The notes: a model not told the origin generated them from the sequence alone. A stretch of DNA of 64,000 nucleotides from Piedraia hortae CBS 480.64 (GCA_010093745.1 MU005998.1:62001-126000); one strand, 5' to 3'; shown: positions 30,908 through 57,523, counted from the first letter of the stretch. Program-made: numbers and translations.

Positions 30908-30958
30908 TAAAGAAAACGAAATATGGAGTAATGTCATTATTATAACTGTATATCGTCT

Positions 30959-31614: not shown

Positions 31615-32049
31615 TCTATCGATCGTAATCTCGCAGCGTAGGAAGAGGTGAGGTTGAGATAAGGTTCGGGCACCGGTAGCCCCTGGCGATCGCCCGTTGG
31701 AGCTAGATCCGCTTTGGAATTTTAAGCCTGCGCGTGCTGTTTGCTGCTTTCACGACAGCACATTTCACGAACCCATTGTTTTGTAAAAGCCTAAATACCC
31801 AGTTTGTTATGTCTGTTGCTGTAGAAAAGCCGATGCAAGGTTGTCGGCATTGAGAATTCGGACATAGCTACAGTCGTCAGGAAAGGTTCTCTTGTGATGC
31901 ACGTGCGTACGACACAGATATATCGCGAAGAGAGTTTCTTTTTCGATTTCAATTTAGATTTTTACACGCGCACAACGAAGAGAATTGGAACCATCTTGAC
32001 TTTCGCGCACGACGGTGCATTCCGTCGTCGCGATTGAACCTCGTTCTAC

Positions 32050-34251
32050 ATGGATTCTGGAAGCAATTCTAAGGCTGCTGCCCCCACGGGCACAAAGTTG
32101 GTGTTGAGTGGGTGGGCAGATAACCGAGCATCCACTCAGAAGGATGCCGGCGTCGGCTCACTGTTGCATGCCACTAGGGAGAATATCAGAGTGAAAATGA
32201 ACCTCGGAAGGGAGGATTTTTCTGTTGAAAAGGTATGTGTCTTCATTGACCGTGTTTAAAAAGTGAACCCAGCTGACATATCCAAGATCCGGGTGAGATG
32301 CGGAGAAGTAGTCGTCGACGTTTGGCCGCAGTCGGTGGCCGATTATCTTCTGAATCGGCCACCACACGCTTGGGCTGGCGCCACTGTGTTTGTCTGTATT
32401 TTTCGGGGGAATCTGGGTCCAGCGAAAACAGGCGACCTGGGCTCCAAGCCCAATGTCAATCCCGAGAGTAAACCAGCAACAGAGCTAAAGGTCACCGGAT
32501 GGACCAAGAACTGGTCTTCTGGCAAGTCAGACCGCGGCGTTGGTTTGCTCCTGAATTGCATGGAGATTATGGTTATAAATCAGACCAATATCGGGGCGGA
32601 GAGTGTTGTCTTGAAGAAGGTGAGACTCAATTTCGAAGTTTCACTTAGACGACAGGACGCTGACCAAAGGTAGGTTCGGATCACGCAGACGGACGAGCTA
32701 ATCGTCCGAGTTTCGCCGCCTAAGGTGCACGCATTTTTTGTTCGTCTCAAAAGCTTCACTTGGGCTGGAGTGTACATCAACGTGACGGCAGCTGGTGGCC
32801 AACAGAAGGCTGAGCAGCTTCTACAAGCCCAGGAACAGCAAGTGGCTCCGCGGCAGCAGCATTTACTTGAAGCTGTCCAGGCCCAACAGCAGCTCCCACG
32901 GGCTGCTAATATGCAGTTTCATCCTGGGCAAATTGCTCAGGCGCAGCAACATGTCCCGCCGACTGCTTTATCACAGCAGCAACAGGCTTCGCAAACTGCT
33001 CAAATGCTGCAGCAAGTGGCTTCGCAACATGCCAAGACGCAGGAGCAGCAACAGCCTGCACAAGGTGGTCTGCAGCAGCCGAAGGCTGTTCACACGCTAC
33101 CACATGTTGTTCAACAACAACCACGGGCGGCTCGGCAGCAACAGTCACAGCCCGCTCAGCAGCAGGGCCAGGTTGTTATGCCACTAGGACAAACCGTTCG
33201 GCAGCAGCAGCTTGCAAATGGGTCCAGAAAGCGGCAGCCTACACAAAAGGCGCACGCGCAGCCAAGTCAGAACACTTCGCAGACGAATCTTAATCAAAAT
33301 CTCTCACATGAGACCAGAATGATCCCCTGGCCAATCCTACGCCCTCGATATAACCGTGAACGGCGGCATCTGGATCTCAGCGCGCTATCCACAGATCAAG
33401 CACTGCGAAACGTAGGGCTGTTCCAAGTCCCAAAATCAAGAACTAAGGACTTCTTAGTCTTGATGCGCACCTTGCGCACCGTCTTCAATACTGTGGCCGA
33501 GCTCCACGATAGGATAACCAGCATTTCCCTAGCCAGGAACGGGATCAAAGACGTGCAACAGGTCCCTGATCTGGACAAAACACTCCCATCATTGCAGAGG
33601 ATCGATCTCGCAAATAATGACATCCACGGAACCTGCAATTTAGGCCACTGGCGTCGCTCTTTGAAATATCTCTGGCACATAAACCTCAATGGAAATCCAA
33701 TCGTGAGGGCGGAGCCCGCTTATCGCGACACCCTGCCCACCGTCCTCCCAACTTTGCAAACAATCAACGGCACCGAGGTTGGGAAACCCCCACCCCATCC
33801 TCCCGCCAAAATGAGCACCAGCTCCCCACAACCCCCAAAAACATCAAAACCCACAGTCCAAGCACCCTGGAACACCCCAAAGAAGCAATCATACGGCAAA
33901 GCGAGTTGGCAAGCTCCAAAACTCAACGCACAGGGCGAAGCAATCTACAGGAACCGCAGCAAAGGCCCTCAGGGGGCCACCCCGCAGAGTCCCAAACAAC
34001 TAACTCCATCTCCAGCGGAGCAGAAACTCGCCGCGACCGAGAAATTCCTGCAGGGACTGGCGCATATGGATATGGAAATGCTGTCAGACGATCAAGAAGC
34101 GATTCTTGATTCGTTTGCACAGAGAACGCTCATGATCGATGACCTTTGTAGGTACTTTTTGCAGCATGTGGATTGGGATGCGAAAAAAGCGTATGAGTTG
34201 CACGAGGAACATAAGGATCAGCTGCCGTTTGAGGCGTATGTGGAGATTTGA
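32050..34251 (+). CDS. Divergent MEX67/NXF1-like protein A: 2x RRM-like, Q-rich linker, LRR, TAP-C (UBA-like); no NTF2-like domain
   Basis: Exons 32050-32232, 32287-32619 and 32674-34251 (about 697 aa). Mex67-type LRR RYNRERRHLDLSAL..ITSISLARN..LDKTLPSLQRIDLANN..LNGNPI..LPTLQTINGTEV. TAP-C QEAILDSFAQRT.M..CRYFLQHVDWDAKKAY..LPFEAY. Confidence 0.85.
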
Positions 34252-34922
34252 TGGGTTGGGTGTTTTGAGCGCTGCTGAGGGATTTGAAAGGACTAGGAGC
34301 GATTGTTTAGGGAGCGAGTAGGGTAGGAAAGTATTGTGTTGTGATGATATGCTTTCTCTGTTTTGGGGTGTTTGGGTTTCGTTTGAGGGTGTGTACATCA
34401 GAGCTGGAGTACGGAAGTTTCTGATTGGAGGGTGGTTGTGAGATGTGCCCTAGAAAATTCCCATCTCCGCTAGAAGAGTGGGAATGCCGTTGGAATCTCT
34501 TACGACAAATAGGCATTGAGCTCTTCTTTGTGGAAGTTTTTGTCATTTGTACGATAACAATTCGTCTTCCAATGTGGGAATGCATCTCGATGTGGTTTCA
34601 CGAGTTTTGATGATCGACGCCATGGTCAGGAAGCAGCAGCCCATAATTATTTGGGGCGAGGCCTTCTGAGCGAGAGATATGCCATGGTGTAACTTTATGT
34701 AGGTATCTATTTGTCACCTATGACACCTTTGCAGCACCCATACTTGGAGGTCTCTCTTACAGGATGAAATACATTGATGGAAAGAGACCGAAAGATGAAA
34801 AGGTGAGAAAAACTTTTGGCCTGATTCCTTGCCCTCCAGAAGAGAATGGAGCTTGTCCCAAATATGGAATATCTTTTAATGGGCCGCATTCATGATTCAA
34901 CAAACCAGGAGCATCATCTAAC

Positions 34923-35170
34923 TGTCACGACACGAGGCTAAGGACGAGGGGTCGGGGCTGAGGGATCGATGAGAGACGAGGCTGAGAGGTTCAAAGCAAT
35001 GGACTATGGACGAAAGGACTGCGTAGACCCCATGTAGACAGAGAAAAATGCATGGGGAAGATACTAGAAAAGTCAGTGCCACCTGAGTATGTGCCGCAGA
35101 ATGGGGCCACAAGGCTCGGGTCGTGGGCAGGCCGGTCCCTTTCGCATGACGTAGGCCCTGAGTCCTGACG
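34923..35170. mobile_element. Solo LTR, family B copy 2
   Basis: TGTCA...TGACG ends flanked by a perfect TCTAAC direct repeat (target-site duplication). Similar to 8099-8353. Confidence 0.85.
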
Positions 35171-35303
35171 TCTAACGAGAACATCTATTTGTAATTGACG
35201 TATTCCTCGATACCAATCTAACTATCAAGTTGCTTAAGGTGACGGACTTACATCAAAATCGTTACCACCCCACACCCACAACCCTGCACATAACTACAGC
35301 CCC

Positions 35304-35446
35304 TGTTCTAATAAGCAGCGGCACCTCACAGGTGTGTCAGCATACACGCGTTTTTAGAGCCACACAGGAAAATTTCTGAGTACTCGAACCCTGGTCAGGG
35401 ATGTGGGTCATCACCTGCGGATCGCTCCGTGGCGACCTGCACAACA
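35304..35446. mobile_element. Solo LTR, family C copy 1 (143 bp)
   Basis: TGTT...AACA ends with a perfect 5-bp TSD GCCCC. 9 mismatches versus 42668-42810. Confidence 0.9.
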
Positions 35447-35797
35447 GCCCCCATCAAATAGTCACCTCCCACTGGCCATGTAGAACTCTTGCTATGTACT
35501 TATACTTTCGCCATGATCATGTGATGCCCATCCGTTTCCTTCAGGTTTCACTTATCAATGTTGTTGGGGGTGTGGTCAATCCGCAGCGGAAGTGTTCGGG
35601 TCCGAGTTCTGCAGTCCCTGCAGCTGTCAAGATGACGCTAATGCTTCTTGCGTCGGTAGATTGCTTCTAGCGTGCAAAACAACAACCAGAAGCCGCCCGC
35701 GACGCCATCCGACAAGTCGCCAGAGCAAAAGCGAAAAGAAAGCGCAAACCATTTTTCCATCTCATCAAAAGAACCCGAACCGCATCCTTCGCAACCC

Positions 35798-36298
35798 ATG
35801 TCGACGGCGCAACCCCCATCCGCGCCCGCTACTGCGCCGGCACAAGGCGCCACAGCGTCGGCTCCGGGCGAACAACCCGGGCGACCCTATTACGAGACGC
35901 TGCGCGCACAGCTGCGGACCACCCTGGCGGAGAAGCGCAAGATAGACGAAGAACTCGTGACGATTGAAGAGGCGCTATACAAAGCAGAGGGGCAATACTT
36001 AGAGGATACGGCGCTGTCGGGAAATATATTGAAGGGGTTTGACAACTGGGTCAAAGGCGTGCAGATCAACGGCCGGTTAGACGCAAGCGAGCGCGAGAGG
36101 AGGAAGAGTAGAGGCGTTACCGACGATCTGAGATTGTTCAGTAAGAGTTCGGTTGGCTGGGGCGATGACCAATTGCTGCCGCTGGCGACATTTGCGCAAG
36201 ATAATTTGAATTTGGGAAAGCAGGTCAAGACGCCGACGACAGGGGAGGATGCGTCGGCAGGTGGTAAGAGGGGCAAGGTGACGTTTGCGAGGGAATGA
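35798..36298 (+). CDS. EAF6: NuA4 histone acetyltransferase subunit Eaf6
   Basis: PYYETLR.QLR..LAEKR.IDE.L..IEE.LYK.E.QYLEDT..GNILKGFDNWVK and RLFS.SS. Confidence 0.9.
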   Translation: MSTAQPPSAPATAPAQGATASAPGEQPGRPYYETLRAQLRTTLAEKRKIDEELVTIEEALYKAEGQYLEDTALSGNILKGFDNWVKGVQINGRLDASERERRKSRGVTDDLRLFSKSSVGWGDDQLLPLATFAQDNLNLGKQVKTPTTGEDASAGGKRGKVTFARE

Positions 36299-36421
36299 TT
36301 CAGCCTGGTTGATGGGACTGAATAGAGTAGCGTTGCCGCTCAGCTATTGCTGTAGCACCGGGTAATGAAGATATACGTGAAAGTTCTCAAGCTCATTTCA
36401 AATTTTGCAAACCCCACACAA

Positions 36422-37130
36422 ATGGAAATGGCCCAGGGCGACCTTTGGCTCTTTGGGTACGGGTACGTCGATACCCAGACGCTGTCATACGCATACTAAG
36501 TAGCGTCGAGTTCTCTGATATGGAAACCTCCACCGCACTATGGCATGTAGTCTGCCTCTCAGATCTTATCGTCATAGTAACTGACAGCGATATGCAGACA
36601 TGCGCCTGCCAGGCTACGTGACAGGCTACGTCCGGCGATTTTGGCAAGCGAGTTCGGACCATCGGGGGACCGAGGAGCATCCTGGCCGCGTGGCGACACT
36701 CATCTCACGTCCCTACTGGGAGAAACTCACCGACGGCCACACGTCGGCCCCGGAGCGGACGTGGGGCGCCGCGTACCGCATCCCAGCCGTACACGTGGCC
36801 GAGGTGAAGGAATATCTCGATATACGGGAGATTAACGGCTACTCTGTGAAATATACAGACTTTCACCCGTCCTCAGACGCGGCGATTCCTGCTGGTGTGG
36901 ACGTGCCTATAAAGTGCCTCGTCTACATCGGACTGCCGACGAACCCGCAGTTTCTGGGGGTGCAAGACCCGCAGAAGCTGGCAGAGAGGATTGCCATCTC
37001 TAGGGGCCCGTCGGGGGAGAATAGAGAATATCTCTACCAGCTGGAGACGGCGTTGGAGGCGCTGAGCAAAGACAGCCATGATCAACACATTTCTGACTTG
37101 GTAAGACGATGTAAAGCCTTGAATAGATGA
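36422..37130 (+). CDS. GCG1: ChaC-family glutathione-specific gamma-glutamylcyclotransferase, 2 introns
   Basis: Spliced LWLFGYGSLIWKPPPHYDMRLPGYVTGYVRRFWQAS.DHRGT.EHPGRVATL, plus YLDIREINGY and GPSGENREYL. Confidence 0.93.
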
Positions 37131-37163
37131 TACGCTTGAACGCTTCATGCAAACTAAAGAATT

Positions 37164-38306
37164 TCACTTTCCGCCCTTTGGGCTTTGCTTCCACAGCTTG
37201 GCCGCCCGTGCTTGGGCCCTGACGGCCAGGTATTTGGATACTTTGGGGTCGTAGAAGCCGCGCACGTCGATGAGGACGTGTCCTCTCTTTCCACGTAGTT
37301 CAACAAGTCCCTGCACAACTACGGTGCCGCGCGGAGGCTCCATCCGGGGCATCTGCCGTGACTTTGCCATGGAATGGTTCAACACATGCCACGCTATGGG
37401 CAGATCCGACGCTGTTGTGGGCGGCAGAGACGGCAGCCACGGCAGTTTCTTGCTCGTTTCAGCAGGACTCTGTACCGGCACGGCCGACGACTTCTTGGCC
37501 AGAGCCGTTGCCAAACGAAACTGTTCTTCGGGGGCGGAAGGGTCAGGTGGCGAATTCAGGCCCAAAGCAGCCAAAGCTCGGCGGTACTGAATGCCAGCAA
37601 CGACGCTGGTGGTGGCCCAGATACCTTTGAGGGTCGCCATCGGCCACAGTGTCCTTTGCGTGCGCCAGAGCTGCTCGGGAGAGATGCGCTGCTGGCTCCA
37701 GGCTACGTAACCGTCGCCAAACTCGAGACCGGAGCGGACGTATTCCTGCGGCGGACCGTCTGGGAACGAAATGTCTAGCCAATACTTTCCAACCTGTGCT
37801 GCGTCGCCCAAATGGCGGCGGAGGACGGGATTGTCGAGACAGCCGTTGAAAACCATATGGACAAGATCCTCCTGCATCTGCTTGTAGCGCCTGCGGTCGC
37901 GCGTCAAGGCCACAAACGCCTGCCACTCTGGATCAGAACCCTTGTAAAACACTCTGTCCAGCTTCCGCGGGAAGGTGAGAGGGACAAAAAACGACTCCTC
38001 GTCAGCGAATTCATCGCCCTCCTCCTCGTACTCCTCCTTCTCCTCGCCCTCCTCTCCTTCCCCCTCTTCATCATCGGCGAATTCAATCTCTACCGATATC
38101 GTAAAGTACCGCTGCAGGACGCGCGCATAGGCGTAAACAGCCAGACCCGAAATCGCCAGCGCCACGATGCGGCGGCGCGTGAAGAACGGTGGCCGCACGA
38201 ATCGCACCGACCGGTATCGGAATTCCGCATCGCTTTTGGGAATCTGATTTCGCCTAGGTAATGTGCCGAACCGCTGCTGGCGTATTAATGGCTTCAGACG
38301 ATTCAT
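37164..38306 (-). CDS. Conserved fungal hypothetical protein, probably mitochondrial membrane
   Basis: Arg-rich presequence-like N-terminus, one TM, an acidic stretch, then FYKGSDPEWQ.F, YWLDI.FP..PP.EY and PPRG.VVVQGLVE. Confidence 0.85.
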   Translation of the reverse strand: MNRLKPLIRQQRFGTLPRRNQIPKSDAEFRYRSVRFVRPPFFTRRRIVALAISGLAVYAYARVLQRYFTISVEIEFADDEEGEGEEGEEKEEYEEEGDEFADEESFFVPLTFPRKLDRVFYKGSDPEWQAFVALTRDRRRYKQMQEDLVHMVFNGCLDNPVLRRHLGDAAQVGKYWLDISFPDGPPQEYVRSGLEFGDGYVAWSQQRISPEQLWRTQRTLWPMATLKGIWATTSVVAGIQYRRALAALGLNSPPDPSAPEEQFRLATALAKKSSAVPVQSPAETSKKLPWLPSLPPTTASDLPIAWHVLNHSMAKSRQMPRMEPPRGTVVVQGLVELRGKRGHVLIDVRGFYDPKVSKYLAVRAQARAAKLWKQSPKGGK

Positions 38307-39199
38307 TGTCCCTGGGCCGATGGCTGCCGGCCGGGTAACCCTAAGGCACCGCTGAATCCTAAACCGGGCTTGTCCCGATTTGTCTTGGCGCACTCAGCGG
38401 GTTTAGCCTTTTTGACGCTTATTCCTCAAGGTGCGTGGGAATGCTTCAAGGGGCCATGTGTGCAAACTGGCATGATTGCCACAAGTATTGGTCAAAATAT
38501 AAACCTATGCATCGATTATCACGCTATCTACTTTATCATTCTAACCTAGCTCCTCCTAGGGGACGGAGGGGGCGTTGGTGGTGGCTGAGGCGTATGGGGT
38601 GGTGTGGAATAGGGATGCCAGGGGTACCCCATCGTACACCGGGAACACGGCGACTTAGGAGGTGGGTTATGACGGTCCCCACTGGAATTGTTGGGAGAAT
38701 CTGTCACGGGTGCCATGCTCGTGTTACTTGTGAGATTCAAGTAAAAGCTGTTATTCGAAAAGTTTGGGGGTACAAGGGGCTTTTATACGCAAACTCGAAT
38801 GGTTCTTCACTGATTGAACATTGGAACTTATTCAAAGTGTCGAAGTGCATAAACCTACATAAATTTTGAATAATGAAACGTTTAACTCAATACCGGCAAG
38901 ATCGAGACCTTCATGCAGGTTGTACTACTGCTAGTCACCCACGTTGTAGCCCAGCTTCGGTATAATGAGTTGAACACATTTCTGTGCGCAAATGCGTCCC
39001 CTTTTCCATATATGCCCGAGACCACATCATCTAGTTCTTCCAAATAGAGGACGCTGGTCAGCTTCGTATCAAAAATCTCAAACTGACGATTCTACGGTAA
39101 AATTTACATATGTTCATGACAGCCTTTTAGGCAAAGAACACGTCTACCTGACTCATTCAACCTCCCCTAAGGAGCGGGAGCACATAATAAGCCTGGAGC

Positions 39200-39290
39200 G
39201 ACTCAAGTCAAAATCAGCTCGTCGACCGAGAATTCTCAAAATGGCTCCCATGCGCCGAGCTGGCCTATAGAACTTCCATAGGCAATGATA
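39200..39290 (+). mobile_element. Gypsy-type integrase fragment
   Basis: One frame reads EFSKWLPCAELAYRTS, matching the W..LP.AEFAYN.S integrase motif. Short and isolated. Confidence 0.4.
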
Positions 39291-39569
39291 CAACTGGAGA
39301 CGTTCATCCAGATCCCTCGAAAGGATTCATTTTAAAGATGGGAGTTAGGGGTGCACGTGTTTAGCAATCTTGTCCAGAAGTGTTTGTAGCCTTTTGTCCA
39401 AAGTTTGCCGCAAATCTTGCGGCAAACATTTCTTCAACCTTCAAAGGTGGGAACCCGGCTAACCCCCAGCTTTTCTTCCTGACCGCCTGCTCCCTTGGAG
39501 TATATACATGTTATTCATTCCACGTGTCATGTACACGGATCAAAACAGAGACTGGAGCAAGATCAGTGA

Positions 39570-40377
39570 CTATGTCAGCACTCTCGCCATGTAAGACCTG
39601 CAGCTCGGCTTGGCTAGGCTATTCAGCTTGGCGAAAAAATGCGACCGTAGGCTTGCAATGTCCTCTCTTCCCTGTTTCAGCAGCACGGCGTGGGTGACCG
39701 GACCAAACGACAGTAGCCCTGGGCGGGAAGACAGCTCTGCATGAAAATTTGCGTTGGCCTGCTGGTCGGAGCGCGCTCTCTCAGTGGCAGTCTTAGCTCG
39801 CTCCTGGACGCAAGGCGATGCTCCAGGGTCTCAGCCTGTACTGCTTGCAGCTCGGAGATAAGCTCCGCTGGGCGCTTTGCTTTGGCTTGGTGCGCAGTCG
39901 CTTGGGTCTGTTGCGTGGCCTGCTGGAGATTCTCGACTTCGTCAGAGACGAGGGAAATGTCTTCTCCCTGGTCTTCCAAAGTCTCGAGCACGGGCTGGAA
40001 TCGGTTGCCATGTTCGCGCACCATGGCAGTCAGCCAGGATGCCTCTTGAAGAAGATCATCACGGCATGAAGGGAAGTGCAAACAAGAAACGCATTAAATA
40101 TGGCCCAGATATCTATATCAGAGACGGGCCCTGCTGATCCCATGTCATTATCCGGCCACTGGCCCATTGATGAAGCATAAGAAGTTTCTTGGTACTGGCG
40201 ATTGGGTGCTGTAATTGGCCCTGTGCTGTGCATGGAAATGGCAGTCCAGTGGATTACGGGCGCCTTGAGACCGCGGGAAGAACACTTCAGGGAATGCAAC
40301 GCGTACTTGTCGACGAGGTAACCGGAAAGGGCCGTGAAGATCTGCTTGAGAGTGGCGAGACAGCGAAAAAATGCCAT
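39570..40377 (-). pseudogene. Disrupted coiled-coil protein gene, left arm of inverted duplication
   Basis: ATG at 40377 (MAFFRC..), a frameshift, then MVREHGNRFQPVLETLEDQGEDI..VENLQQA and FAKLNSLA..HGES, homologous to the + strand copy. Confidence 0.65.
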
Positions 40378-41159
40378 TGTAGGATAGTTGCTGAGGATTC
40401 AGGTAGGTAAGGAGAGCGAGAGAGAATGAGAATGTTGCAGTATGGTGGATGACTGCAGGAGTGAGGTGTGTGAGCAAGAAAGACGAAGGAAGCAAGCAAT
40501 CCGTATAAGTCCCGGCAGGGAGCTTGACTTTTGATTATGAAGAAAGGATACTCGTCCAAATATATGACTTGTGAAGTTCGATGTCAACCTCATGGTTTGT
40601 CAGTCAGGCTGATAACGAGAGAAATTTTCGACGTCGGAGGTTAAGTTGACTACTAACATGTCCGTTAGGTGGCCAATATTCTTGTCTATTGTGGATTGTG
40701 ACAGCCAAGCTCCTGATATGAACACAGATTAAAATTTGCACGAAGGCCTGCTCACCATTTCTATAACTTTGAATATATGATCGAGCCAACAGGCTTTCGA
40801 ACACCGATTACGAGAGAACAACGGAGAAATTCGGCTTTCAGGTGCCATATCTTCGATGTTGCAGATCCATGTGGTACAGGTGGACTTATTATACTTGACT
40901 TGACCCTGATGAAACCCTGCAATTACATTCTCTAGGTCTTGGCGCTGGGAAGATATTGACCTCTTTGCGTCATTCGGGACAAGTATATCTTCCTCACACT
41001 TCTCGTGAGTAAAACTTCACGCCTGGCCAAATTTATAATTCTTTACCCCTTCTTCTTTCTTTCTAATACACCTCACTCCTGCTCTCAACCACCATATTGC
41101 AACGCTCACATTCTCTCGCTGTCTCAGTACATTTCAATAACCTCTACCATCGCCCTACC

Positions 41160-42565
41160 ATGTACTTTCTCCATTATCCCGCCATGTTCAAGGACATCCG
41201 CACAGCATGAACGAGATAATTTGTGCATGAGCACGTCTGGCGTGTTGTGGGATGCTCCCCATGAAATTTGAAGGGTGCTGGGACCTCTAGGGTGGCATTC
41301 CAGAGATCGGCATGGGGCCTGTCGCCGTGTCGAACCCCTCGGCCGATAGTGCTGTCTCATCGTTGCCCACAGGGCAGCTATTGAACATCGCACCGGGACA
41401 AGCCTTTTTTGCCCCCAAGAGAAACGGCTGGGCTATATCAATAGCCACGGCCCTCGTTGGTATTGCTTTCGGTATATTGGCAAATCGGCTACAGGATTCA
41501 CCTCGAATGCCAAGTTAAAAAAGAAGCAGGCCGGAGGTGGAGAACTGGTGGAGGAAACGGTCATCGAAGCCGTAGAGACAGTCAGCCAGCAAATCACACG
41601 CAAATTAGAGGAACAAGCAGCCTTGAACAGCCGTCTCCTGGACATGGTCGAGTGGGACCGCCAGAACATGAAACCACCCCAAGACGATCTGGCAGCCACG
41701 CTGCGAATTAATGGCAATCGGTTCGAGCAGGTACTCAACACCCTCGATGGTTAAGGCGAAAATATTCGCCGCATCTCTCAGAACGTCGAAAATGCCCAGC
41801 AGGCCTGGGACAAGGCCAACGAGATAGCTCATGAAGCAAATAAGAAGCACCACAATGAGCTTCTTAAGAAAGTGCAAACTGTCCAAACTGAGACGATGCA
41901 GCACCGCCAGGACTCTGCCAAGCAAGTCCAGGGCACCGCTGGGTGGGCCCTGTATGACCGGCAGACAGCGGACAACCGCGACGCAGAGCTGTCTTTCCAT
42001 CTTTGGATGTTGGCGTTCACCTCTGCCACCCAGGCCAGGCTGCTGAGGCAGGGATGAGAGAACGTCCTCACCCTGGCATTCTCGCTTCGCCAAGCTCAAT
42101 AGTCTAGCCGACATGATCGACGAGCGACAGGCCTCCCACGGCGAGAGTGTTAACGCCGTTTCGAAAGGGTTTGCGCACTTCCCTGCCGTGCCCAATCTCG
42201 CTGCAAATTCACACGCCGACACTGCGGCCATGACGCTCACCGGCACAGATGCAGCAACTTTCTCGGCGAATTCGTCTGCCCCTCCGCCTGCTGGCCATCC
42301 CACGCCCATATTCTCCTTCTCTGCCAATGCCAGCGGCGAAGACGTTGCGCTAGAGCGTACCTTCACGACATATGCCGCACCAATTTTCTCCTTTACCAGC
42401 AGCCCCGCAGGCGTAGAGCCCTCTATCCGAGTGTCTGGCACCACACCCGCTGCATCATTCGCCTTATCCCAAGCGCTGTCGACCACGCCAGCGTTTCAGT
42501 TCAAAGGAGGGGCCTGTGAGTATGATGTGACAAGGGATCCGCGGAAAAAGAGGACTTGCAGGTAA
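41160..42565 (+). pseudogene. Disrupted coiled-coil protein gene, right arm of inverted duplication
   Basis: ATG at 41160 (MYFLHY..), multiple stops, LRINGNRFEQVLNTLDG*GENI..VENAQQA, FAKLNSLA..HGES, and an F/S/T/A-rich tail ending YDVTRDPRKKR. Confidence 0.65.
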
Positions 42566-42667
42566 ATATACGAAGAGTGCGGATTTGGAGTTATGTAGTA
42601 GCAGAGTTAAAACAAAGTGCCAATATTCAAGTTCACAATGTCATTATTGGGGAAAAAACTTGGGCAA

Positions 42668-42810
42668 TGTTCTAGTAAGCAGCGGCACCTCACTGGTGTG
42701 TCAGTATACACGCGTATCTAGAGCTACACAAGAAAATTTCTGAGTACTCAAACCCTGGTCAGGGATGCGGGTCATCACCTGCGGATCGCTCCGTGGCGAC
42801 CTGCACAACA
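42668..42810. mobile_element. Solo LTR, family C copy 2 (143 bp)
   Basis: TGTT...AACA ends with a perfect 5-bp TSD GGCAA. Confidence 0.9.
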
Positions 42811-46675: not shown

Positions 46676-46921
46676 TATGTGTAAGCTGTGCTAAGTTTCT
46701 GGTTTGGTGTACTCTATATCCGTATGACAAGTTCAATCACTCATGTCTACGATTCTAACACGCTTCGTTAATGCATCGACGGCTTCCGAACGTCTCTTGC
46801 CAGCCGGAGGGCGGAAATAGTCTTGAATGTATCCGAGGAAGAACGACCATCCTGCAGTTTGTAAAGATTACAAGTTAGAATTCATCGAATCATTTTAGTG
46901 TGTAGGTACAGCGAGCAGAAT

Positions 46922-48683: not shown

Positions 48684-50299
48684 GTCTCGACAGTTTGGTT
48701 GCAGGAGTTTGTTGTTCTTTAGAAAATGAGGTCATTTAGCGTCATTAGGGTGTCATCGGACCGGGCCGGGCCTTATTCTGATCACCAATGAAATGTGCAT
48801 GAGATTGCCACCTAAGCAATCTGATTGACATTTTACCTGTCAAGTGTCATGACAAAAAAAAAAACGACAAAACTTGCAAGGTGAAGAGGACTTGAAAACC
48901 CTCAGCTTTGCCTAATGGCCGCCTCCAACGAAAGCATTGTGCAGTACAACGACGGGCCGTACCGACCCGCAGTGTTTGTCCACACAATTTGCTTTAAGAT
49001 ATTTCAATTGCCAAAAAACTCGTCACCATCTCACACTTTACATCACCGAAATTATGATTGTTCGCCATAGTAAGCCTCAATCAATTTGACCCTCGATGCC
49101 CCAGCTCGATGCTGTAATGCGTGCGGAGCAGTGTTGCTAGTCGATATACATTGAATTTTAGGGTTCAGTCATTTGCCTATTGTCAATAGTACTGGAAACA
49201 GCTTAGAAAAAACTGATAACCTCCAAGTTGACTCATGACCAATTCACGAAGACGAAAGTTTCTCTGACATGTCTTGCCCCTCCAAGGATAACAAATCCTA
49301 TCATCACGCCTGACTACATTCAAATGCAAGGTTAGCAGTAGTTTTGCGTCTAGGCCTCACGTTTGAGAAGTAAAAATTATCAATCAAAGCGTCGTGATTG
49401 ATAAGATCGCTTCATTGTTCTGCTTGGTTGGCTATGTGGTCTTCTGTGCCTCCCACGCACCAGGTCATTCTCGATGCGTTACTGCCATATATATGACACT
49501 AGCGGAGACGAGAATGATTATTCGCTCCCACCCAAATCTCGAGAGACATTCACCACCATTATTCAACACTCAGACGCTTAATCTATCCTTTTAGCACCGG
49601 AAGAGCTCGCAATCTACTCCAGTTGAACGCTTTATCGGCTCGACACCTTCCAGAGGAGGCATACCGGGAAATTATTGAGGTGTGCAATACTTGGCGAGAA
49701 ATAAGCTCTGATCATGAAGCATTTTACAACTCTCAGCCAAGTCCCTTCACCCACAACGCAATATGGTTCTACGACACAAGACTCATTTCTGACAGTTTGA
49801 ACATATTCACGCTGCGAGTAGGTTTGCTTTCCTGGTATACCGGCTGTGTTTCGCGGTACACAAGCGTAACTCCCATCTAGAATTGTCGCCTAAGTCCAAA
49901 TGGTAGAGACCTACACCTCTTCTCTGCCTTCACTTTTCCTTTCCAGGACTGCTCTGTTCTTTCGGCGGAGATATCTGCACACATGCTCGTGCGATTTCTC
50001 AAGCATGCATTTGGCGGTTTGCGATACAGAAAACACCAGACTCAAATTTCAAGTAGTTGAAAAGTTGTCGGGGATTGAGGAAGACTCTCACTGGACGGGG
50101 TTAGTCTGGAATTGTCGCTTGATGGGGTGTCTAACTTGTACATTACTAAAAGCGCGCCTTGTGCTCGTGCAGACTTTTGTAAACTGCAAGAGTGCAGTCG
50201 GGAGAACATAAACTTGGAGAAGACCATCTGGTTTGTTGCTTAAACATTCTGCGGACTTTAGGCTGCCAAGACTTCAATTTGGGTCACATTCTGCATGAC

Positions 50300-50820
50300 T
50301 TCATAAAGCTATGCGGACCAAGTAAGCCTCACGGTGGAAGGCCTTTCCGAACGTGACAAGGCAACCCAGTGGGTGTTTTACAACATCGATGATCTGGAAG
50401 ATGCTATCGGGAAAAATCTTCATATCATTATTAGCCACTCTTTAGCGCCTGAAGATGGACTCAAGCTGTGGGCGGATCAGTCATCTTGCCTATATTGATG
50501 ACATCAACTTTCCAAGATCGTTCCACTATAGTGGCAGTTTCCATCCGCCTTCATTACAGGAATCAACGGAAAGAGCAAAGCTGCAATTCTTTGCTTCAAA
50601 AACAACAATGAGACGGACATCGGCGGGAAGCCTTTGGACAAACTATATGGCGAGTAAATCATGTTACCTTCCCTCGACACCAATAAGACGAAATCATAAT
50701 ATTCCCTGCCGCTCGGCTGCGATTTAGAGCGGAGCATCATGATTCCCAACCAAAAGCCGCTGTTAGAAATATCGCCCGATGAGGCAGTTACCTCGATAAG
50801 AACCATGAAGAAAGCTCTGA
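50300..50820 (+). mobile_element. Degenerate non-LTR (LINE/Tad1-like) reverse transcriptase relic
   Basis: QGNPVG (cf. PQGSP), LAYIDDIN at about 50491, and F.ASKT. Many stops. Confidence 0.55.
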
Positions 50821-51699
50821 ATTGGATTTACAATCAAAACTTCGCACCAATCCAATCCACTCATGCAGTACTTCTCCGGGCCACAAACACCCTGAAGGCC
50901 AACCGGGAGATGATAGGACTCCTAAAACTTCGCCTACGATCGTGGAAACTTCAAAGAGGGCACGTCATACCTCCTTTGGGAAGACTGCAGAGGTATCGGA
51001 AAACCATTCCTAGATCTGAGGTCGTTCATCGTGAGTCCCGAAACTTCAGCCAAAGCGCCATCTCTCAGGTCCTACCCCATTAAGACCGTCCGACAGTGCG
51101 ATATTCGCCACGCGCAAGGTCTAGCATCGCCCGCCACCGTGAAATGGACATAAAGCACTGTACCGTGGCATGCTTCGGTGTTGAGGACGGGTGAAGAGTC
51201 TTTGTATTGCATCGTACTGGCGGGAATTTTCAATGAGCCTATTTCTCACCAGCTACTGGATGCCCGAATACGATGTCGCCGAGGATTGCCGCTAACATGT
51301 TGTTCGAAACGAGCCAACGAAAATATCGATTGTCCAGATATTGATTCCATAGGGTTCGTAGATGGATTGAGACAGATGATTGGGAAGGCACGCGCTAGTC
51401 GGAGTTTGTTTGGCAGTGCCATTTGGTGAGTCATCAGACTGGAAGTTGAGTAGTCAAGACTTTGTGGAATAAGATGTTGGGAGGCTTTTTGAATGGGAGA
51501 ATTTGTGTAGGACAGTTGTGTAAGGGAATAAAATCGCACGAGGGTATCAACAATCTCGCCCAGCTCACTGTCTATGAACTGGTACAAAGATCCTCTAGAC
51601 TAAGATAACGACGATTCTGTACGTATTATTTGCTCCGTATAAACAGAACAACCTGTGTAACCTCAGTAAATTGATATTTTCTACTCACCACATCCTGCC

Positions 51700-52300
51700 A
51701 TGTATTTGTTGTTGCTGCTCTGTACAGGTGTAATCATCAATGAAGGTGAGGTAGTACGGTGAGCCGCTGATCGATGGGATTACGAATTTTCCTGACAGAG
51801 GCCGCATGAATGACTTCAGATGGCCTTGTGGACCTCCCGTAGGGTAGCGACTTGGGCTTGTGAAGAGTGGCCTTCGTTGTGAAACAGGAATCATAGAGAA
51901 AATATTTGGGCATTGGGCGGTACAAGGGCTCCACCTGGAGAGAGCGTGGTGGGTGGATTACTATGTACTCCCTGAACTTGCACAAGGAACCTGTCAGAAG
52001 GATGTGGCACCCACCATGACCAGAACCTTAGCTAGAAGTCGAAACTTCTCAGGGTCTTTACCTCTATAGAGGAAGTTTTCCCTGAGACGGGTCATTGTCT
52101 CGTTCATGCTTAAGGGCATGGTTGGCTGGCGTTGTCCTGGAGAATATGGTTAGACCGAGGTAGTGTGGAGAAGGTTTCGAACCTCACCTCACATAGAGAT
52201 AGACATCTACATCCTCCACCTTCTGGTCAGTTGGATGCACACATTTATCTTTGATCTATGTTCCGCTTTAGTCCTCCGAGGTTTACCCCTCCGACAAAAC
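51700..52300 (-). mobile_element. Degenerate Ty1/Copia GAG-pre-integrase/integrase relic
   Basis: SC.TTKA..RSTRPSEVIH, then frameshifted LSGKFVIPSISGSPYYLTFIDDYT. Confidence 0.75.
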
Positions 52301-52429
52301 CCGCCCTGGCTCTATCTACCCCATACAGTGTGACATCAACCCCGTCCTCTGTGAGAGAGACATGTTGCCAGTCCCCATAAGCTCACTTGAGTGCGGATTT
52401 GTGGCCAGCTGAGGAGACGAGTTGATTTG

Positions 52430-52657
52430 TGTTATGGTGCTCAGAGGAAAAGGTTCAATAAGTCCCAACAACGAGGACAATCCAGACTCCTATCTACTGG
52501 GAAGCTAGGATGCTATAAACCAATCCAGAAGCGCCGTTCATTCGTGCGTGGTAGCGAGCGTAGCTATGAATAACTAGCAGGGCGCGTCGGTGTATCAAAT
52601 TCCCTGTGCGCTTAGGCGGCGCGGTTCGTCCCGCGCACACACAGCCTCGCCGTAGCA
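52430..52657. mobile_element. Solo LTR, family A copy 2 (228 bp)
   Basis: TGTTATGG...CCGTAGCA ends with a near-TSD ATTTG/AGTTG. Collinear with 4787-5014. Confidence 0.85.
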
Positions 52658-52699
52658 AGTTGATAGCTTAAAGAATCATGCACTGACCCAAAGTTTTGG

Positions 52700-53030
52700 G
52701 AACGATGGAAGCAAGCAGTCGTTTCCAGCACAGCTTGTATAACTTTGCACAAAACTCCAAACGCCAGATCCGGGATCTCTTTCGCAACAGGTTTGATGTC
52801 TGGTTTGTTGAGGACACCCTTTGTGGTGGCGATCACGACCTCGCGGAGTCCAGTTTAATGGATCTGGTGTGCTGTTGTAGACGAATGAAATAGCCTCGGC
52901 GAAGCTATTGTGGCTCCAGATCCATCTTGCGTCATCGCGAAACTCCCAGATGGCGGCCTTTTCCAGGTAAGGGTACTGGTACTTGACCGCGACTGCGAAT
53001 AACTTGGCGTGCATAAGCAGCCAGAATCTC
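52700..53030 (-). pseudogene. Truncated, frameshifted fungal BTB/POZ-associated helical domain fragment
   Basis: LLMHAKLFAVAVKYQYPYLEKAAIWEF..FAEAISFVYNSTPD, then frameshifted LREVV..EIPDLAF. Confidence 0.6.
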
Positions 53031-53379
53031 AGAAGATCGACTGCCGGCTGGGGGTGACGAGCACATAGCTTACAATAGGCTTTCCCCGTGAGGTGATGAG
53101 ATCGGAAGACGAGGGGCGAGCCAGGGCTTGAACGGGAGGATTGGCGGCAGTGGGGTGAAAGACGGGGCACGGAGTGGGCGGCAGAGATACTGAACGGTCA
53201 TCGCGATTGTTCGAGGAGGGTTGGGCCTTGTTGCGCTTTTGCGGCAGGCGAACCCAGGATCCATTACGTACCCCCGTATTTCTTGTTGGATTGTTGAGTA
53301 CTGGCGTCGACATTCAAGCAATGGCGCACCAAGGCCGCATCGTCTTTTCTGGGTGGTTTGTTAGGCTGAAATTTACAAT

Positions 53380-53660
53380 CTAGATTATAGCAAAGCACAC
53401 TGTCCGGGGCACCCGCGTAGTCAGAACTCTGTAGCGTCTGCTCCAGCTCACTCAGGTATTCATGGAACGGGGGGTCTCCCTGTTCCATCTTTTTCAACCT
53501 GCGATTGGCCATTGGGCCTCGTGTAGGGTCATCGAAGTAATCCTTCATTTTGTTAATGAACTTAGGCAGAGTCCAGCGGCCGGCGATCCGCTCCCATAGT
53601 CTCACGCCAGCGCATAATGATATGCAGGAGGCTTGGATTATAAATTCCTTCAACCCCAAA
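53380..53660 (-). mobile_element. Ty3/Gypsy retrotransposon Gag fragment
   Basis: WTLPKFINKMKDYFDDP...ANRRLKKMEQG..FHEYLSELE matches the Retrotrans_gag pattern. Confidence 0.7.
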
Positions 53661-53817
53661 ATGGGTTGCTCTGCGACCATGCACAATTTTGGCGGGGTAG
53701 GAAGTTTTTCGGACAAGTGAGGTCGTTGGCGTGAAACTTAGCTCCGGGACGGGCCGCACCTAGCTTGCTTCTTTGACCACGTAACCAACAAAGAGGAACT
53801 CGAGTTGACCCTCAGAC

Positions 53818-54627
53818 ATGGACGCCAACAACACGACAAACTCCACTGGCGACCCATTTGAATCTGCACAATCGCGAAAAAGTATCTGGATTGGACTACT
53901 CTGGCCAGCACTTTATCTCACCATCCTCATTGGCAGCCTTTACGCCTTTTCGTCCCTTCATCGCAAACGACAGCTGGCCAAAAGCACCCGGCTAGAGCCA
54001 TGGTTTCCACCTCACAGACAACGCGATATCTACCTCAGTTTGTTGCACCAAGAAGCAGATGGTACCGATGAGAAGCAAGCGCAGCGGGCGCCCGATTCGG
54101 TTCTCGCCGCAGCGTTGCTGCAGCGAGCCTTTGAAGACATCAAGCGCATTGTACAGCTACGAACAAGCAAGCAGGCCCTACAAATGCTGCTGCAACGAGG
54201 TTCGGTGGGGGAAGAATTATGGCAACGATACCAGCATGCTGAGCAGGAGATGGAAGCCGAACTCAAAGACGTAATTGAAGAGGTAGGCACACCGAACACC
54301 TTGATCGAATGGCGCTAACAGGACCAGGCCAATGGGATAGCACCTAATTGGGGTAACTTTATATTCCAATCTGCAAACGAGATGAACCAGAACAGATTGC
54401 TGCGGGAGCGCATTGAAGACGCTCAGCGGCCACTGGAGAATGAGCGCCAATGGTGGGCAAACAAGAAGTCTGGGATGGCTGCCGAATTGATGCGGGAGCT
54501 GGATGAAGATGGCAACTCGTCAGAGGCCAAGAAGGCTACGACTAGCGATGACGATGCGGTGCTGGTGGAGTCAGGAGGCCCGACACAAGCACAGGGCTCT
54601 GGGAAGAAGAAGAAGGGTAAGAAATGA
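53818..54627 (+). CDS. SEC66: Sec62/63 complex subunit Sec66 (Sec71), 1 intron
   Basis: TM P..YL.ILIGSL..FSSL.RKR, LEPWFPPH.QRDIYLSLLH, LL.RGSVG.ELWQR and spliced EEANGIAPNWG..IFQSANEM. Confidence 0.93.
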
Positions 54628-54840
54628 TCACATAACAGCGGCAACACGGTAGCGGTATGTTACATTCTGCAACCCGCTCAACGAACAGGAAGTTTTTGAG
54701 GCCCCACGTGGCCCAATCGGGCATGGTGTTCGCTAGGATAGCCACGTGATGTCAGACTTAAGCCGACAATGACTCGGTCGATGGCGCCATATGACCGGGA
54801 TCGCCACATTTATATTCCACTTCTTCGCTAAACCTCTTCA

Positions 54841-56298
54841 ATGCACTTTGACGAGCTTCCTCCAGAAATTTGGTCTGATATCCTCCGCCGTGCGGCCCTG
54901 CTGAATGCCGCCGAGGGGCCTCACTTTACTTACGGACTTTCACAGGCACAATTGCCTCTGGAGCAACCGTCCCACCAGCCCAAGCCCGTCAAGTACGTGC
55001 GTGGGCCTGTGAGCGCTGAGCAGCTGCGGTGGGATGCTACGGCATCGATCCGTCAGGTGTCGTCGCGCTGGCACCATTGGGCGCTGGCCTACAATCTCGA
55101 GCATATTTTCGAGCGGCGTTGGCAGGGTTCGGAGCGGTGGGCTAATCTTTCGTTCAATCGTCACTCTTATGGTCTCTATGAGCTAATTGATAGGCCTTCA
55201 GGCTCCTATGTGTATCGTGACCCGTTTGGCTCTCTGACACTAACCGATACCTTTTTCCAACGGTTTCCCACCACTGCCAAGTTTGTGCGACGTTTGTGGT
55301 TCAACGGGTTTTATGCGGCAAAGACTGATGGATTGATCTTGTCCATTGTTGCCAATTGCCCTTGTTTGGAGTCCTTAACGATACCTTGGACCGTACTGCG
55401 GCGAGCTTCGGTCGATCAATGGCTTGATCTTTTGAAGCACAACTCCCTTCGCGGAGCACCGTTGCGGTCTTTGGAGCTACAGGCCGTCTGCCTGCCTAGT
55501 GATCAAGCTGCTGCGCTCTACAAGCACACTTCTCCGAGCGCGTTGGAAGATGACCGCGTCAGCTTTGCCAGCCTCAAACGGCTCAAGTTCTTTGGCAACA
55601 CTGTCCACAAGCCCGTGACTGACCGGGATCTCTACCTCATTGCTCAAACAGCAACAAACCTCGATTGCCTCGACATCACGAATCTATCAACCGTCTCAGT
55701 AGCTGGCATGCTCGCGCTTGTCAAGGCCTCGCATGACACTCTCCAGGTGCTCGAGCACTCTCCACGATCAGACGATGGCTTCTTCCATCCGTTCCCCGGG
55801 CATCTTGAGAATGGGGAACATATCTGCGAACTCCTCACTAGCCTCCCTTGCATGCGTGATCTTTCCATCAGCATTCCGCACGTTTGCGCCAGTCTATTTT
55901 CGGAAGAGGACGTGCAATGGGCTGGCGATCTACAAGTTCGAGCCGCTGGTCTCTGCGGAATCGCTTCCTCTGGCGATGGCGAAGTACGCGCTAAAGCCCT
56001 AGCAACCATATTGTCCAAGTCACGCCAGCTGATAAAAGCCCGCCAACGTCTCCGCAAGGAACTCCACGTCGAGCTCTTCTTCGCAGGATGCATCTTCAAA
56101 CCAGAAGACAGTCTTGTGCATGGAGATTTTACGACTGCAGAAGCCCTTTCACATGGGAATTGGCCCGCTGCAAAGCAGAATAGCACTCTCGGGCCGTACG
56201 GACAGACGGGAACGTATGGAAAGGAGGAAAATTCATGGATAGCGGTGTCGGAGACGGAGTTTTTGCGTGGGGTCGTAAATGGATGGGTGGAGTCATGA
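54841..56298 (+). CDS. Conserved hypothetical protein, F-box-like N-terminus plus RNI/LRR-like region
   Basis: 485-aa intronless ORF with an F-box-like start F.ELP.EI..IL and LxxL repeats (LRSLEL, LKRLKF, LDCLDITN). Confidence 0.8.
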   Translation: MHFDELPPEIWSDILRRAALLNAAEGPHFTYGLSQAQLPLEQPSHQPKPVKYVRGPVSAEQLRWDATASIRQVSSRWHHWALAYNLEHIFERRWQGSERWANLSFNRHSYGLYELIDRPSGSYVYRDPFGSLTLTDTFFQRFPTTAKFVRRLWFNGFYAAKTDGLILSIVANCPCLESLTIPWTVLRRASVDQWLDLLKHNSLRGAPLRSLELQAVCLPSDQAAALYKHTSPSALEDDRVSFASLKRLKFFGNTVHKPVTDRDLYLIAQTATNLDCLDITNLSTVSVAGMLALVKASHDTLQVLEHSPRSDDGFFHPFPGHLENGEHICELLTSLPCMRDLSISIPHVCASLFSEEDVQWAGDLQVRAAGLCGIASSGDGEVRAKALATILSKSRQLIKARQRLRKELHVELFFAGCIFKPEDSLVHGDFTTAEALSHGNWPAAKQNSTLGPYGQTGTYGKEENSWIAVSETEFLRGVVNGWVES

Positions 56299-56527
56299 TA
56301 TAACTACTTGAATGAGACGTTGAGGCAAGGCCTTGAGCCAGTCCAGGATAGCCTGTCGTTTTCTGTAGCGTGCGAGTATTTTGACTATAAATAATGGTCC
56401 ATCTCTGAGCCACGAGGCACGAAGATGTGTCAGCTCCTTCCTGGTTCTGCCGTCTCTTCTGGACCAGACAACTCTGGTGCTTCTTGTCTCCCCCTTCTGA
56501 ATAAGAACGCCTTACTCCGTATACACA

Positions 56528-57523
56528 TCATCCAGGACTCTCATCTCTGTCGCAATCTTCGTCCATCTCAAAATCCAAGAACGCGACGGAAGCCAATGCA
56601 TCTTTTCTGTCGTCGTATCTCTCCAGCGCGCGATGCAGGTCCCAGCCTGCATGTTCCAGGAAACACCTGCAGTAGGCGTCGGTTAGCCTCGTCAGCCTCG
56701 CAAACTCTTGGAGCATCTCATTTCTCGTGTCAAACAGCAACTCTCCGTTGATCATCTCTAGTCTAGGCAACCAACTCATTAGCGCCATGTTAGCACAATG
56801 TCGCTCCTCCCTCTGCATGATGGGATTTTTGTTCAAGTTCAGCTTGACCAAATTCGGCGCGCAGGTCTGCAGCTCCTTTAACGCCGAAACCCTCGTGAAG
56901 GCGTTCAAGGACAGATCCAGGTTGACAAGGGCGGGGAGTGCATGGAGCATGGGCGCCACCTCCTTCAGGTTCGCCAAGCTGTTCTGCGCAAGCCAAACGC
57001 TCTTGACGTCCTCGAGCGGCAGCGTGCGCAGCACGGCCTGCACCGTCGCAGACAGGATACTCTCGTTTCTCGACAATTCAATAAACTGGAATCCATGGAT
57101 CTTGTTAAGCGCGCTGAGATTCAGCATGCGTGCTTTAGGCGAGTAACATCTTCGTATCAGCTCATCGATCCCTGCCGGCTTCGACTCCTCGTTCTCTCTT
57201 TCCTCCTTCTTCACCGACACCACCCCTCCCGTCTCCGATAAATCTCCTCCATTCGGCGAGTACGGTTGCACGCTAATGAAAGCGTTTGCGAACTTGTACC
57301 CGTCTATGCGCGAGAAAGCGCGCTCGTCCCGTGATGAGATGGTCACGACAAGCTTTCCCAGTCCTATCACACGCGAATCATCAATCACGGCCCCATTCGT
57401 CTTCTTCGAAAGCCATCCCAGCAACGCACTTAGCCCACCATCGGCTTCTTTGGCCACTCTGCTGATTTCCCATCCCGTCACTAGCATACTCACCCGTTGC
57501 GGGACCCACGGACGCTTGGACAT
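56528..57523 (-). CDS. Divergent MEX67/NXF1-like protein B: RRM-like, LRR, TAP-C; no NTF2-like domain; intronless
   Basis: RRM-like VTGWE.S....DGGLSALLGWL.KK..IDGYKFA. LRR RCYS..RMLNLSAL..VKSVWLAQNSL..LPALVNLDLSLN..LNKNPI..LPRLEMINGE joined directly to TAP-C NEMLQEFARLTRL...YCRCFLEHAGWDLHRAL..AF. Confidence 0.88.
   Translation of the reverse strand: MSKRPWVPQRVSMLVTGWEISRVAKEADGGLSALLGWLSKKTNGAVIDDSRVIGLGKLVVTISSRDERAFSRIDGYKFANAFISVQPYSPNGGDLSETGGVVSVKKEERENEESKPAGIDELIRRCYSPKARMLNLSALNKIHGFQFIELSRNESILSATVQAVLRTLPLEDVKSVWLAQNSLANLKEVAPMLHALPALVNLDLSLNAFTRVSALKELQTCAPNLVKLNLNKNPIMQREERHCANMALMSWLPRLEMINGELLFDTRNEMLQEFARLTRLTDAYCRCFLEHAGWDLHRALERYDDRKDALASVAFLDFEMDEDCDRDESPG

Follow-up and report, generated by a model that had tools for sequence, protein, structure and literature searches.

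In Mex67 of fungi and NXF1 of animals, RNA is bound by a module composed of an RRM-like and an LRR domain, and Nxf2 of Drosophila keeps the NTF2-like domain, through which it pairs with Nxt1. In Mex67, the NTF2-like domain is bound by Mtr2, the NTF2L-Mtr2 unit and the UBA domain each bind phenylalanine-glycine (FG) nucleoporins, and deletion of NTF2L-Mtr2 or of the RRM is reported to reduce RNA affinity more than 15-fold (PMC4498709). Exporter paralogues with a division of labour, TbMex67, TbMex67b and TbMex67L, are described in trypanosomes; according to the same source each of them has an NTF2 domain and binds Mtr2, and a UBA domain is missing from TbMex67L (PMC12774637). In Drosophila, the export-factor paralogues Nxf2 and Nxf3 are described as having new roles, co-opted for PIWI-interacting RNA (piRNA)-guided silencing (PMC6677536). 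Nxf2 is reported in complex with Nxt1 and Panoramix (PMC6677536, PMC7861614), the latter being a non-nucleoporin partner of its UBA domain (entry titles 6opf and 6iew; PMC6677536). Here we analysed a 64,000-nucleotide stretch of Piedraia hortae CBS 480.64 (GCA_010093745.1 MU005998.1:62001-126000; hereafter the window), which carries two genes, A and B. By descent and by three domains their products are members of the Mex67/NXF family, without the NTF2-like/Mtr2 feature that defines the working heterodimer; because this feature is missing, we classify them as an NXF variant and not as functional MEX67 orthologues. With moderate confidence, we favour the reading that A and B are transcribed, very fast-evolving, Mtr2-independent accessory RNA-binding factors that were derived from Capnodiales MEX67 and have a specialised role.

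Compared with canonical fungal Mex67 (that of Baudoinia panamericana, and those of Chaetomium thermophilum and Saccharomyces cerevisiae in the Mex67:Mtr2 structures 4wp6, 4wpm, 4xm4 and 4wwu), A and B are alike in descent, in their RRM-like and LRR folds and in a C-terminal TAP-C/UBA-like domain. They differ in lacking the NTF2-like domain, which leaves no known Mtr2 interface and one possible FG-binding unit, and in lacking the Arg-rich N-terminus, with 26-39% identity in the common domains; A differs further in having two RRM-like modules and long low-complexity spacers. The trypanosome proteins are likewise a lineage-specific exporter expansion but, unlike A and B, retain the NTF2 domain, and the loss in TbMex67L is the opposite of theirs (PMC12774637). 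With Nxf2 and Nxf3 of Drosophila, A and B have no sequence affinity beyond the family level.

The domain content was assessed by Pfam, tblastn and AlphaFold2 models made with a 75-row alignment. For B, TAP_C scored 27.7 bits (cut-off 21.3) and UBA_4 31.2 bits (cut-off 21.8), and UBA_4 had no Pfam match in A. The model of B (mean predicted local distance difference test (pLDDT) score 87.7) comprises an RRM-like domain, a disordered segment (residues 93-115), an LRR domain and three UBA helices; that of A (mean pLDDT 68.5) is confident in the second RRM-like module (residues 126-211), the LRR domain and the UBA-like domain, and poor over residues 1-58, in the Gln-rich region and in the Pro/Lys/Ser linker. 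When both models were compared with the PDB by Foldseek, TAP/NXF1 and Mex67 structures ranked first. B matched the RRM and LRR domains of TAP (1ft8, E 9e-11), the LRR domain of C. thermophilum Mex67 (4wp6, template modelling (TM) score 0.77) and the Mex67 RRM (4wpm); the LRR domain of A matched 4wp6 with a TM score of 0.90 and a root-mean-square deviation (rmsd) of 1.5, and its second RRM-like module matched 4wpm. With three canonical Capnodiales MEX67 proteins as tblastn queries, matches fell only in the RRM and LRR regions of the two proteins, those of Baudoinia MEX67 reaching E 7e-10 in module 2 and E 1e-3 in module 1 of A. The LRR-defining residues do not vary across the nine aligned sequences, nor does the conserved Trp in the UBA loop. 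These data indicate that both proteins contain an RRM-like domain (by fold and tblastn), an NXF-type LRR domain (by predicted fold) and a C-terminal TAP-C/UBA domain, that of A being a confidently modelled three-helix unit, in agreement with the domains named in the sequence-only reading, an earlier account of this stretch made without database searches. A and B are paralogues, with identities of 29% in the LRR domain (148 amino acids (aa)) and 31% in the UBA region (80 aa). Projecting Cys623, the FG-pocket residue in C. thermophilum Mex67, onto A and B was considered and dropped, because a one-residue indel made the alignment ambiguous.

The NTF2-like, Mtr2/NXT1-pairing domain is missing from A and B. 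No NTF2 family was matched by Pfam in either protein, and neither AlphaFold2 model contains an NTF2-like fold. A profile made from the NTF2-like columns in 48 canonical relatives gave 305 bits with Baudoinia MEX67 as the positive control; run over 1650 six-frame segments of the whole window, it returned a best score of 4.8 bits (E 1.5). In B, the LRR domain extends to about residue 260 and the UBA helix begins at residue 263, so that one abuts the other, and in A a Pro/Lys/Ser-rich linker, predicted to be disordered over residues 552-615, stands in place of the domain, both as previously read from the sequence. The Arg-rich (RGG) N-terminus, also reported as absent in that reading, was not found in A or B in an alignment with five canonical Capnodiales proteins, and tblastn gave no match to it near either gene. 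A hidden NTF2 exon or relic, including one joined by unrecognised splicing, was considered and rejected: the profile and tblastn were silent, B is one continuous open reading frame (ORF), and the transcript of A has no further joints.

Transcript evidence was taken from the contigs of one public run that holds this DNA and is labelled 'RNA?'. We took the run as RNA because its contigs skip GT..AG introns, in neighbouring genes as well, carry a poly(A) end and leave positions 39341-42008 bare. The frame of A is interrupted by two stop codons, each of which lies inside a 54-nt in-frame GT..AG intron; the claim of two intact ORFs thus held for B and not for A. The spliced translation of A is identical to the 697-aa database protein K470DRAFT_295958 ('hypothetical protein' or 'TAP-C domain-containing'). 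An RNA contig over A spans 31276-34349, with both introns precisely absent, no other joints within the A transcript and a loose poly(A) end, so the A transcript undergoes splicing and polyadenylation. Transcription of B is very probable, the run containing all 94 words sampled from its coding sequence. The contig start at 31276 falls within the coding sequence of an opposite-strand dUTPase gene (30940-31614, minus strand), and a 53-nt CT..AC joint at 31054/31108 is an intron of that gene; positions 31276-32049 are either a long 5' leader overlapping the dUTPase gene head to head or the product of two transcripts fused in assembly.

The two RRM-like modules of A form an internal repeat. Residues ~3-97 and 113-209 aligned with a Smith-Waterman score of 115 (mean of 300 shuffles 25.8 +/- 4.8), and the modules are 34% identical over 47 aa by BLASTP. 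Since each carries a 54-nt intron at the same place, the duplication copied the intron too. Module 1 was recognised from this repeat and the tblastn match given above (E 1e-3), and its AlphaFold2 confidence is poor.

To place A and B among their relatives, B was compared by phmmer with 1.84 billion cluster representatives, giving 107 hits at E <= 0.001. Canonical MEX67 proteins were matched at E values down to 7.5e-18, that of Baudoinia best, and no relative exceeded 34% identity; in word-indexed protein searches, B and the C-terminal part of A each retrieved only itself. A Pfam scan covered 102 of the 107 hits (three proteins longer than 1000 aa were left out). Most hits are proteins of 450-800 aa that carry NXF_NTF2; 25 of the 102, besides A and B, have LRR_NXF1-5 and TAP_C without NXF_NTF2. 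Two of these 25, K470DRAFT_255080 (268 aa) and K470DRAFT_236618 (317 aa), are from other contigs of P. hortae, so that the fungus carries at least four NTF2-less NXF genes. Among the remaining hits, P0023 (603 aa) has four tandem TAP_C domains and a weak DUF7730, and P0053 (267 aa) has two tandem TAP_C domains, neither with LRR or NTF2.

A quick tree (tree 1; 75 rows, 403 columns) was built from 66 of the 107 hits and nine named Dothideomycete MEX67 proteins, with the NTF2 columns removed and with fragments, generic LRR proteins and TAP_C-only proteins (41 hits) left out. In this tree the four P. hortae proteins form one group (Shimodaira-Hasegawa-like approximate likelihood ratio test (SH-aLRT) support 98), nested with a set from Teratosphaeria, Hortaea, Baudoinia, Friedmanniomyces and Zymoseptoria (support 98). 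A more careful tree (tree 2; 32 rows, more named Capnodiales) recovered the same group (89/83), within which A joins B (94/86) and the two short copies join each other (98/81). When A was removed and the tree rebuilt, B joined the two short copies (support 89); when B was removed, A stood next to them (support 72); in neither case did A or B group with any other long NTF2-less row. K470DRAFT_255080 and K470DRAFT_236618 have the same junction from the LRR end to the helix before the UBA domain, which points to one NTF2 deletion before the duplications. Together, our data suggest that the four copies are a lineage-specific expansion inside canonical Capnodiales MEX67 that followed a single NTF2 deletion, so that the NXF expansion proposed earlier, for which a phylogeny had been called for, comprises four copies rather than two. 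A divergent full-length MEX67 of Elasticomyces elasticus (P0005, 655 aa) branches outside the Capnodiales core group in both trees; it is 50% identical to the Baudoinia protein, and copies under the same species name are at 67-69%.

The copies differ in rate. K470DRAFT_255080 shares 64% (LRR) and 45% (UBA) identity with Acidomyces MEX67, similar to the orthologues of the more distant Capnodiales Zymoseptoria, Cladosporium and Peltaster (59-69% and 47-53%), while the corresponding values are 39% and 24% for A and 32% and 31% for B. These identities indicate that K470DRAFT_255080 evolves like an orthologue and that A and B evolve several times faster.

Uncharacterised proteins of the same RRM-LRR-TAP_C architecture without NXF_NTF2 occur sporadically in other Pezizomycotina, where they are annotated as hypothetical, TAP-C domain-containing or MEX67 proteins; none is close to A or B, and some short members of this set could be fragments or erroneous gene models. 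Named examples are from Cladophialophora immunda, Fonsecaea erecta and Chaetothyriales sp. (within a clade of 10 representatives), and from Polyplosphaeria fusca, Lophiotrema nucula, Hypomontagnella submonticulosa, Phlyctema vagabunda and Trizodia sp. When the NTF2-less label was mapped on the 75-row tree, 14 changes were needed, at least eight of them forced by starred branches, which indicates that NTF2 was lost independently. The Chaetothyriales-type clade (P0007, P0025, P0030, P0034, P0036, P0048, P0051, P0062, P0069 and P0095) is deep (support 100, stem 1.2) and includes black yeasts of the Chaetothyriales; inspection by eye shows that its members share a distinct, conserved linker motif ahead of the UBA domain. 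It resembles an ancient, conserved paralogue family for which no function has been published. We found no description of fungal NTF2-less Mex67 paralogues in the open-access full-text literature, in line with the earlier suggestion that such an expansion is undescribed.

Based on these results, the following course is proposed. A resident Capnodiales MEX67 would have undergone a clean deletion of the NTF2-like domain and lost the Arg-rich N-terminus, giving rise to an NTF2-less family of at least four genes that kept the RRM-like and LRR module and the C-terminal UBA-like (TAP-C) domain; in A, a second RRM-like module, copied along with its intron, would have been added, as would the Gln-rich spacer and the Pro/Lys/Ser-rich linker. 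Without the NTF2-like domain, A and B would not pair with Mtr2 via the known interface and would be left with no more than one of the two units by which Mex67 binds FG-nucleoporins. They may bind RNA more weakly or more selectively, their UBA-like domain may dock on FG-nucleoporins or on another partner (ubiquitin-type or a helical peptide), and their function could be cargo-selective or regulatory. K470DRAFT_255080 is most likely the copy that retains the ancestral export role.

Several observations weigh against this interpretation. In Pfam, LRR_NXF1-5 scored 24.8 bits for A (E 1.7e-5) and 20.6 bits for B (E 3.5e-4), both under the cut-off of 30.5, TAP_C scored 18.9-19.8 bits for A (E 1e-3) under its cut-off of 21.3, and RRM_9 had no match in A or B. 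The UBA-like domain of B is nearer in sequence to the ubiquitin-binding UBA domain of p47 (E 1e-4) than to that of C. thermophilum Mex67 (E 0.077), and that of A has no significant sequence match in the PDB; FG-nucleoporin binding is therefore not to be assumed, and these domains could have a partner of another kind than FG repeats. In the trees, A and B are two long branches that attach to one another, which makes their exact position uncertain; at about 30% identity the pair is also saturated, and with no close orthologue no ratio of non-synonymous to synonymous substitution rates can be computed. The evidence for transcription of B is the word content of the contigs of a single RNA run. Finally, 'accessory' may misname the family should P. 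hortae lack a canonical MEX67.

The length of the branches, 1.9-2.4 changes per column in tree 1 and 3.3-3.8 in tree 2, would also suit decaying, functionless duplicates on their way to pseudogenes, as would the Pfam scores below cut-offs and the lack of any relative above 34% identity. Against such decay, both reading frames (697 and 331 codons) are intact, the transcript of A is precisely spliced and carries a poly(A) tail, all sampled words of B are in the RNA run, domains are modelled at pLDDT >90, and the fold-defining LRR and UBA residues are invariant in the nine aligned sequences. We therefore consider decay improbable, and the possibility raised earlier that the duplicates are silent did not hold. 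A and B could instead be competitive regulators that hold messenger ribonucleoprotein (mRNP) adaptors or FG/TREX-2 docking sites without translocation and so damp or gate the main exporter. Their architecture, which retains the cargo side and one docking unit without the second, would be consistent with such a role, and yeast export is reported to be impaired by excess Mex67 in nuclear mRNPs (PMC12828223). However, this would require a main exporter, which is hypothetical in P. hortae; the specificity of the UBA-like domain is also uncertain, and we hold a competitor role to have little probability.

Whether P. hortae keeps a canonical MEX67 bears on both the competitor and the accessory-factor interpretations. 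When Baudoinia MEX67 was used as the query against annotated proteins of 361-1150 aa (E <= 1e-20), no P. hortae protein was found among the best 120 of 233 relatives, all of which are at E <= 2.4e-173. A canonical full-length copy as conserved as K470DRAFT_255080 (LRR 64%) would be expected among these 120, and an unannotated gene would escape a search of annotated proteins. Among 101 Dothideomycetes, P. hortae is reported to rank lowest in both assembly size (16.95 Mb) and gene number (7,572) (PMC7082219), a background against which the fourfold expansion stands out and which makes a loss plausible. The absence of any NTF2-bearing NXF from the genome is a serious possibility, to which we give roughly a third of the weight. 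In that case P. hortae, perhaps also without Mtr2, would carry an orthologue, K470DRAFT_255080, that itself lost the domain and then multiplied to four copies, A and B included, and bulk export would proceed without the Mex67-Mtr2 heterodimer; this we regard as plausible, though below even chances.

A related reading is that the NTF2-less family has replaced Mex67-Mtr2, with K470DRAFT_255080 as the orthologue, Mtr2-free export perhaps by several copies per mRNP, and A and B as diverged helpers or sub-functionalised exporters. It would fit the lack of a P. hortae protein among those best 120 of 233 relatives, the loss shared by all four copies, their position as one clade where the species is expected, and the reduced genome and gene set (PMC7082219). 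However, the search concerned the best 120 hits and annotated proteins within the length limits given above, Mex67-Mtr2 is described as an essential, conserved exporter of fungi and animals (PMC12774637, PMC3032688), and the 268-aa model begins inside the RRM and may be incomplete. Replacement appears unlikely, and A and B as accessory factors remains the interpretation that we prefer.

The setting of the two genes is ordinary. Their neighbours encode an alanyl-tRNA synthetase, a DEAD-box helicase, a PX-BAR protein, an RNA cyclase-like protein, the dUTPase and a NuA4 subunit, and further ChaC, an SNF2-type protein, Vps3844, NPL4 and Sec66. Next to B lies a 485-aa ORF (54841-56298, plus strand) with no Pfam match, whose N-terminus may be F-box-like. 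No transposon family was matched in the 87 ORFs scanned from the window, GC content is even (47-57%), and the only repeats in the window are three small dispersed pairs and one 81-nt inverted pair, so that the earlier proposal of a region rich in transposon relics is not supported. Two of the dispersed copies lie <= 1.2 kb downstream of A, and RNA contigs end loosely at 34922-34925, 35444-35446 and 42811. The inverted arms (39660-39740 and 41983-42063, 70% complementary) are near the ends of the segment 39341-42008 without RNA cover; ORFs within 39341-42063 had no Pfam match, and this interval is possibly what is left of an element flanked by terminal inverted repeats.

A silencing function had also been suggested for A and B, namely that they were co-opted for transposon or RNA surveillance as Nxf2 and Nxf3 were in Drosophila. 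The link rests on analogy with the fly NXF variants co-opted for piRNA-guided silencing (PMC6677536), and the fast evolution of A and B would fit genetic conflict. Evidence from the locus runs the other way: the region is a housekeeping one with even GC and no transposon domain in any of the 87 ORFs, and the UBA-like domain of B matches the Nxf2 UBA-Panoramix fusion structures at E 0.15-0.18 only, which is not significant. The Nxt1 pairing of piRNA-type NXF proteins via the NTF2-like domain appears to be lacking in A and B, which have no such domain, and the trypanosome paralogues are all described as keeping it (PMC12774637). Surveillance is thus the least probable of the roles considered, with a very small chance.

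Table. Features of genes A and B and dispersed repeats in the window (positions counted from the first nucleotide of the window; domains as predicted)
Feature	Position	Strand	Details and basis
Gene A, K470DRAFT_295958, 697 aa	32050-34251	+	exons 32050-32232, 32287-32619, 32674-34251 (including stop)
Intron 1 of A, 54 nt, GT..AG, in frame, stop-containing	32233-32286	+	RNA contig joint 32229/32284 skips 54 nt
Intron 2 of A, 54 nt, GT..AG, in frame, stop-containing	32620-32673	+	RNA contig; position homologous to intron 1 in duplicated module
RRM-like module 1 of A, residues ~15-100, intron 1 included	32092-32403	+	internal repeat; tblastn; low AlphaFold2 confidence
RRM-like module 2 of A, residues ~124-211, intron 2 included	32473-32790	+	pLDDT 86-93; Foldseek 4wpm_A, TM 0.84; tblastn
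Gln-rich spacer of A, residues ~215-382	32800-33303	+	predicted helix 215-243, then low-confidence stretch
NXF-type LRR domain of A, residues ~390-545	33325-33792	+	Pfam LRR_NXF1-5 below cut-off; pLDDT >93; Foldseek 4wp6
Pro/Lys/Ser-rich linker of A in place of NTF2-like domain, residues ~546-640	33793-34077	+	pLDDT <50 at 552-615
UBA-like/TAP-C domain of A, residues ~644-697	34087-34248	+	Pfam TAP_C below cut-off; three helices, pLDDT 92-98
Poly(A) addition site of A transcript	34349	+	23-A loose end behind 34349 in RNA contig
Gene B, single exon, 331 aa	56528-57523	-	one uninterrupted 331-codon ORF
RRM-like domain of B, residues 10-87	57263-57496	-	AlphaFold2; Foldseek 4wpm_B, TM 0.86, rmsd 1.3
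NXF-type LRR domain of B, residues 119-260	56744-57169	-	Pfam LRR_NXF1-5 E 3.5e-4, below cut-off; AlphaFold2, Foldseek
UBA-like/TAP-C domain of B, residues 263-315, directly after LRR	56579-56737	-	Pfam TAP_C and UBA_4 above cut-offs
Dispersed repeat pair, 228 nt	4787-5014/52430-52657		80-94% identity (range of the three pairs)
Dispersed repeat pair, 171 nt	8182-8352/34999-35169		as above
Dispersed repeat pair, 144 nt	35304-35447/42668-42811		as above

Mex67-Mtr2 (NXF1-NXT1) is regarded as the exporter that universally carries bulk mRNA in fungi and animals, and to our knowledge the described NXF paralogue expansions of animals keep the NTF2-like domain. P. hortae shows the opposite, with a four-copy family that apparently keeps the cargo module and the UBA-like domain and drops the Mtr2-binding domain, and within which A and B have evolved very fast yet are still expressed and foldable. 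Unstudied proteins of similar make-up, found in black yeasts, Pleosporales, Xylariales and Leotiomycetes, suggest that the class is recurrent and has been overlooked. The family would thus offer a natural experiment on what an NXF protein does with one or no FG-binding unit, and on whether Mtr2 is dispensable.

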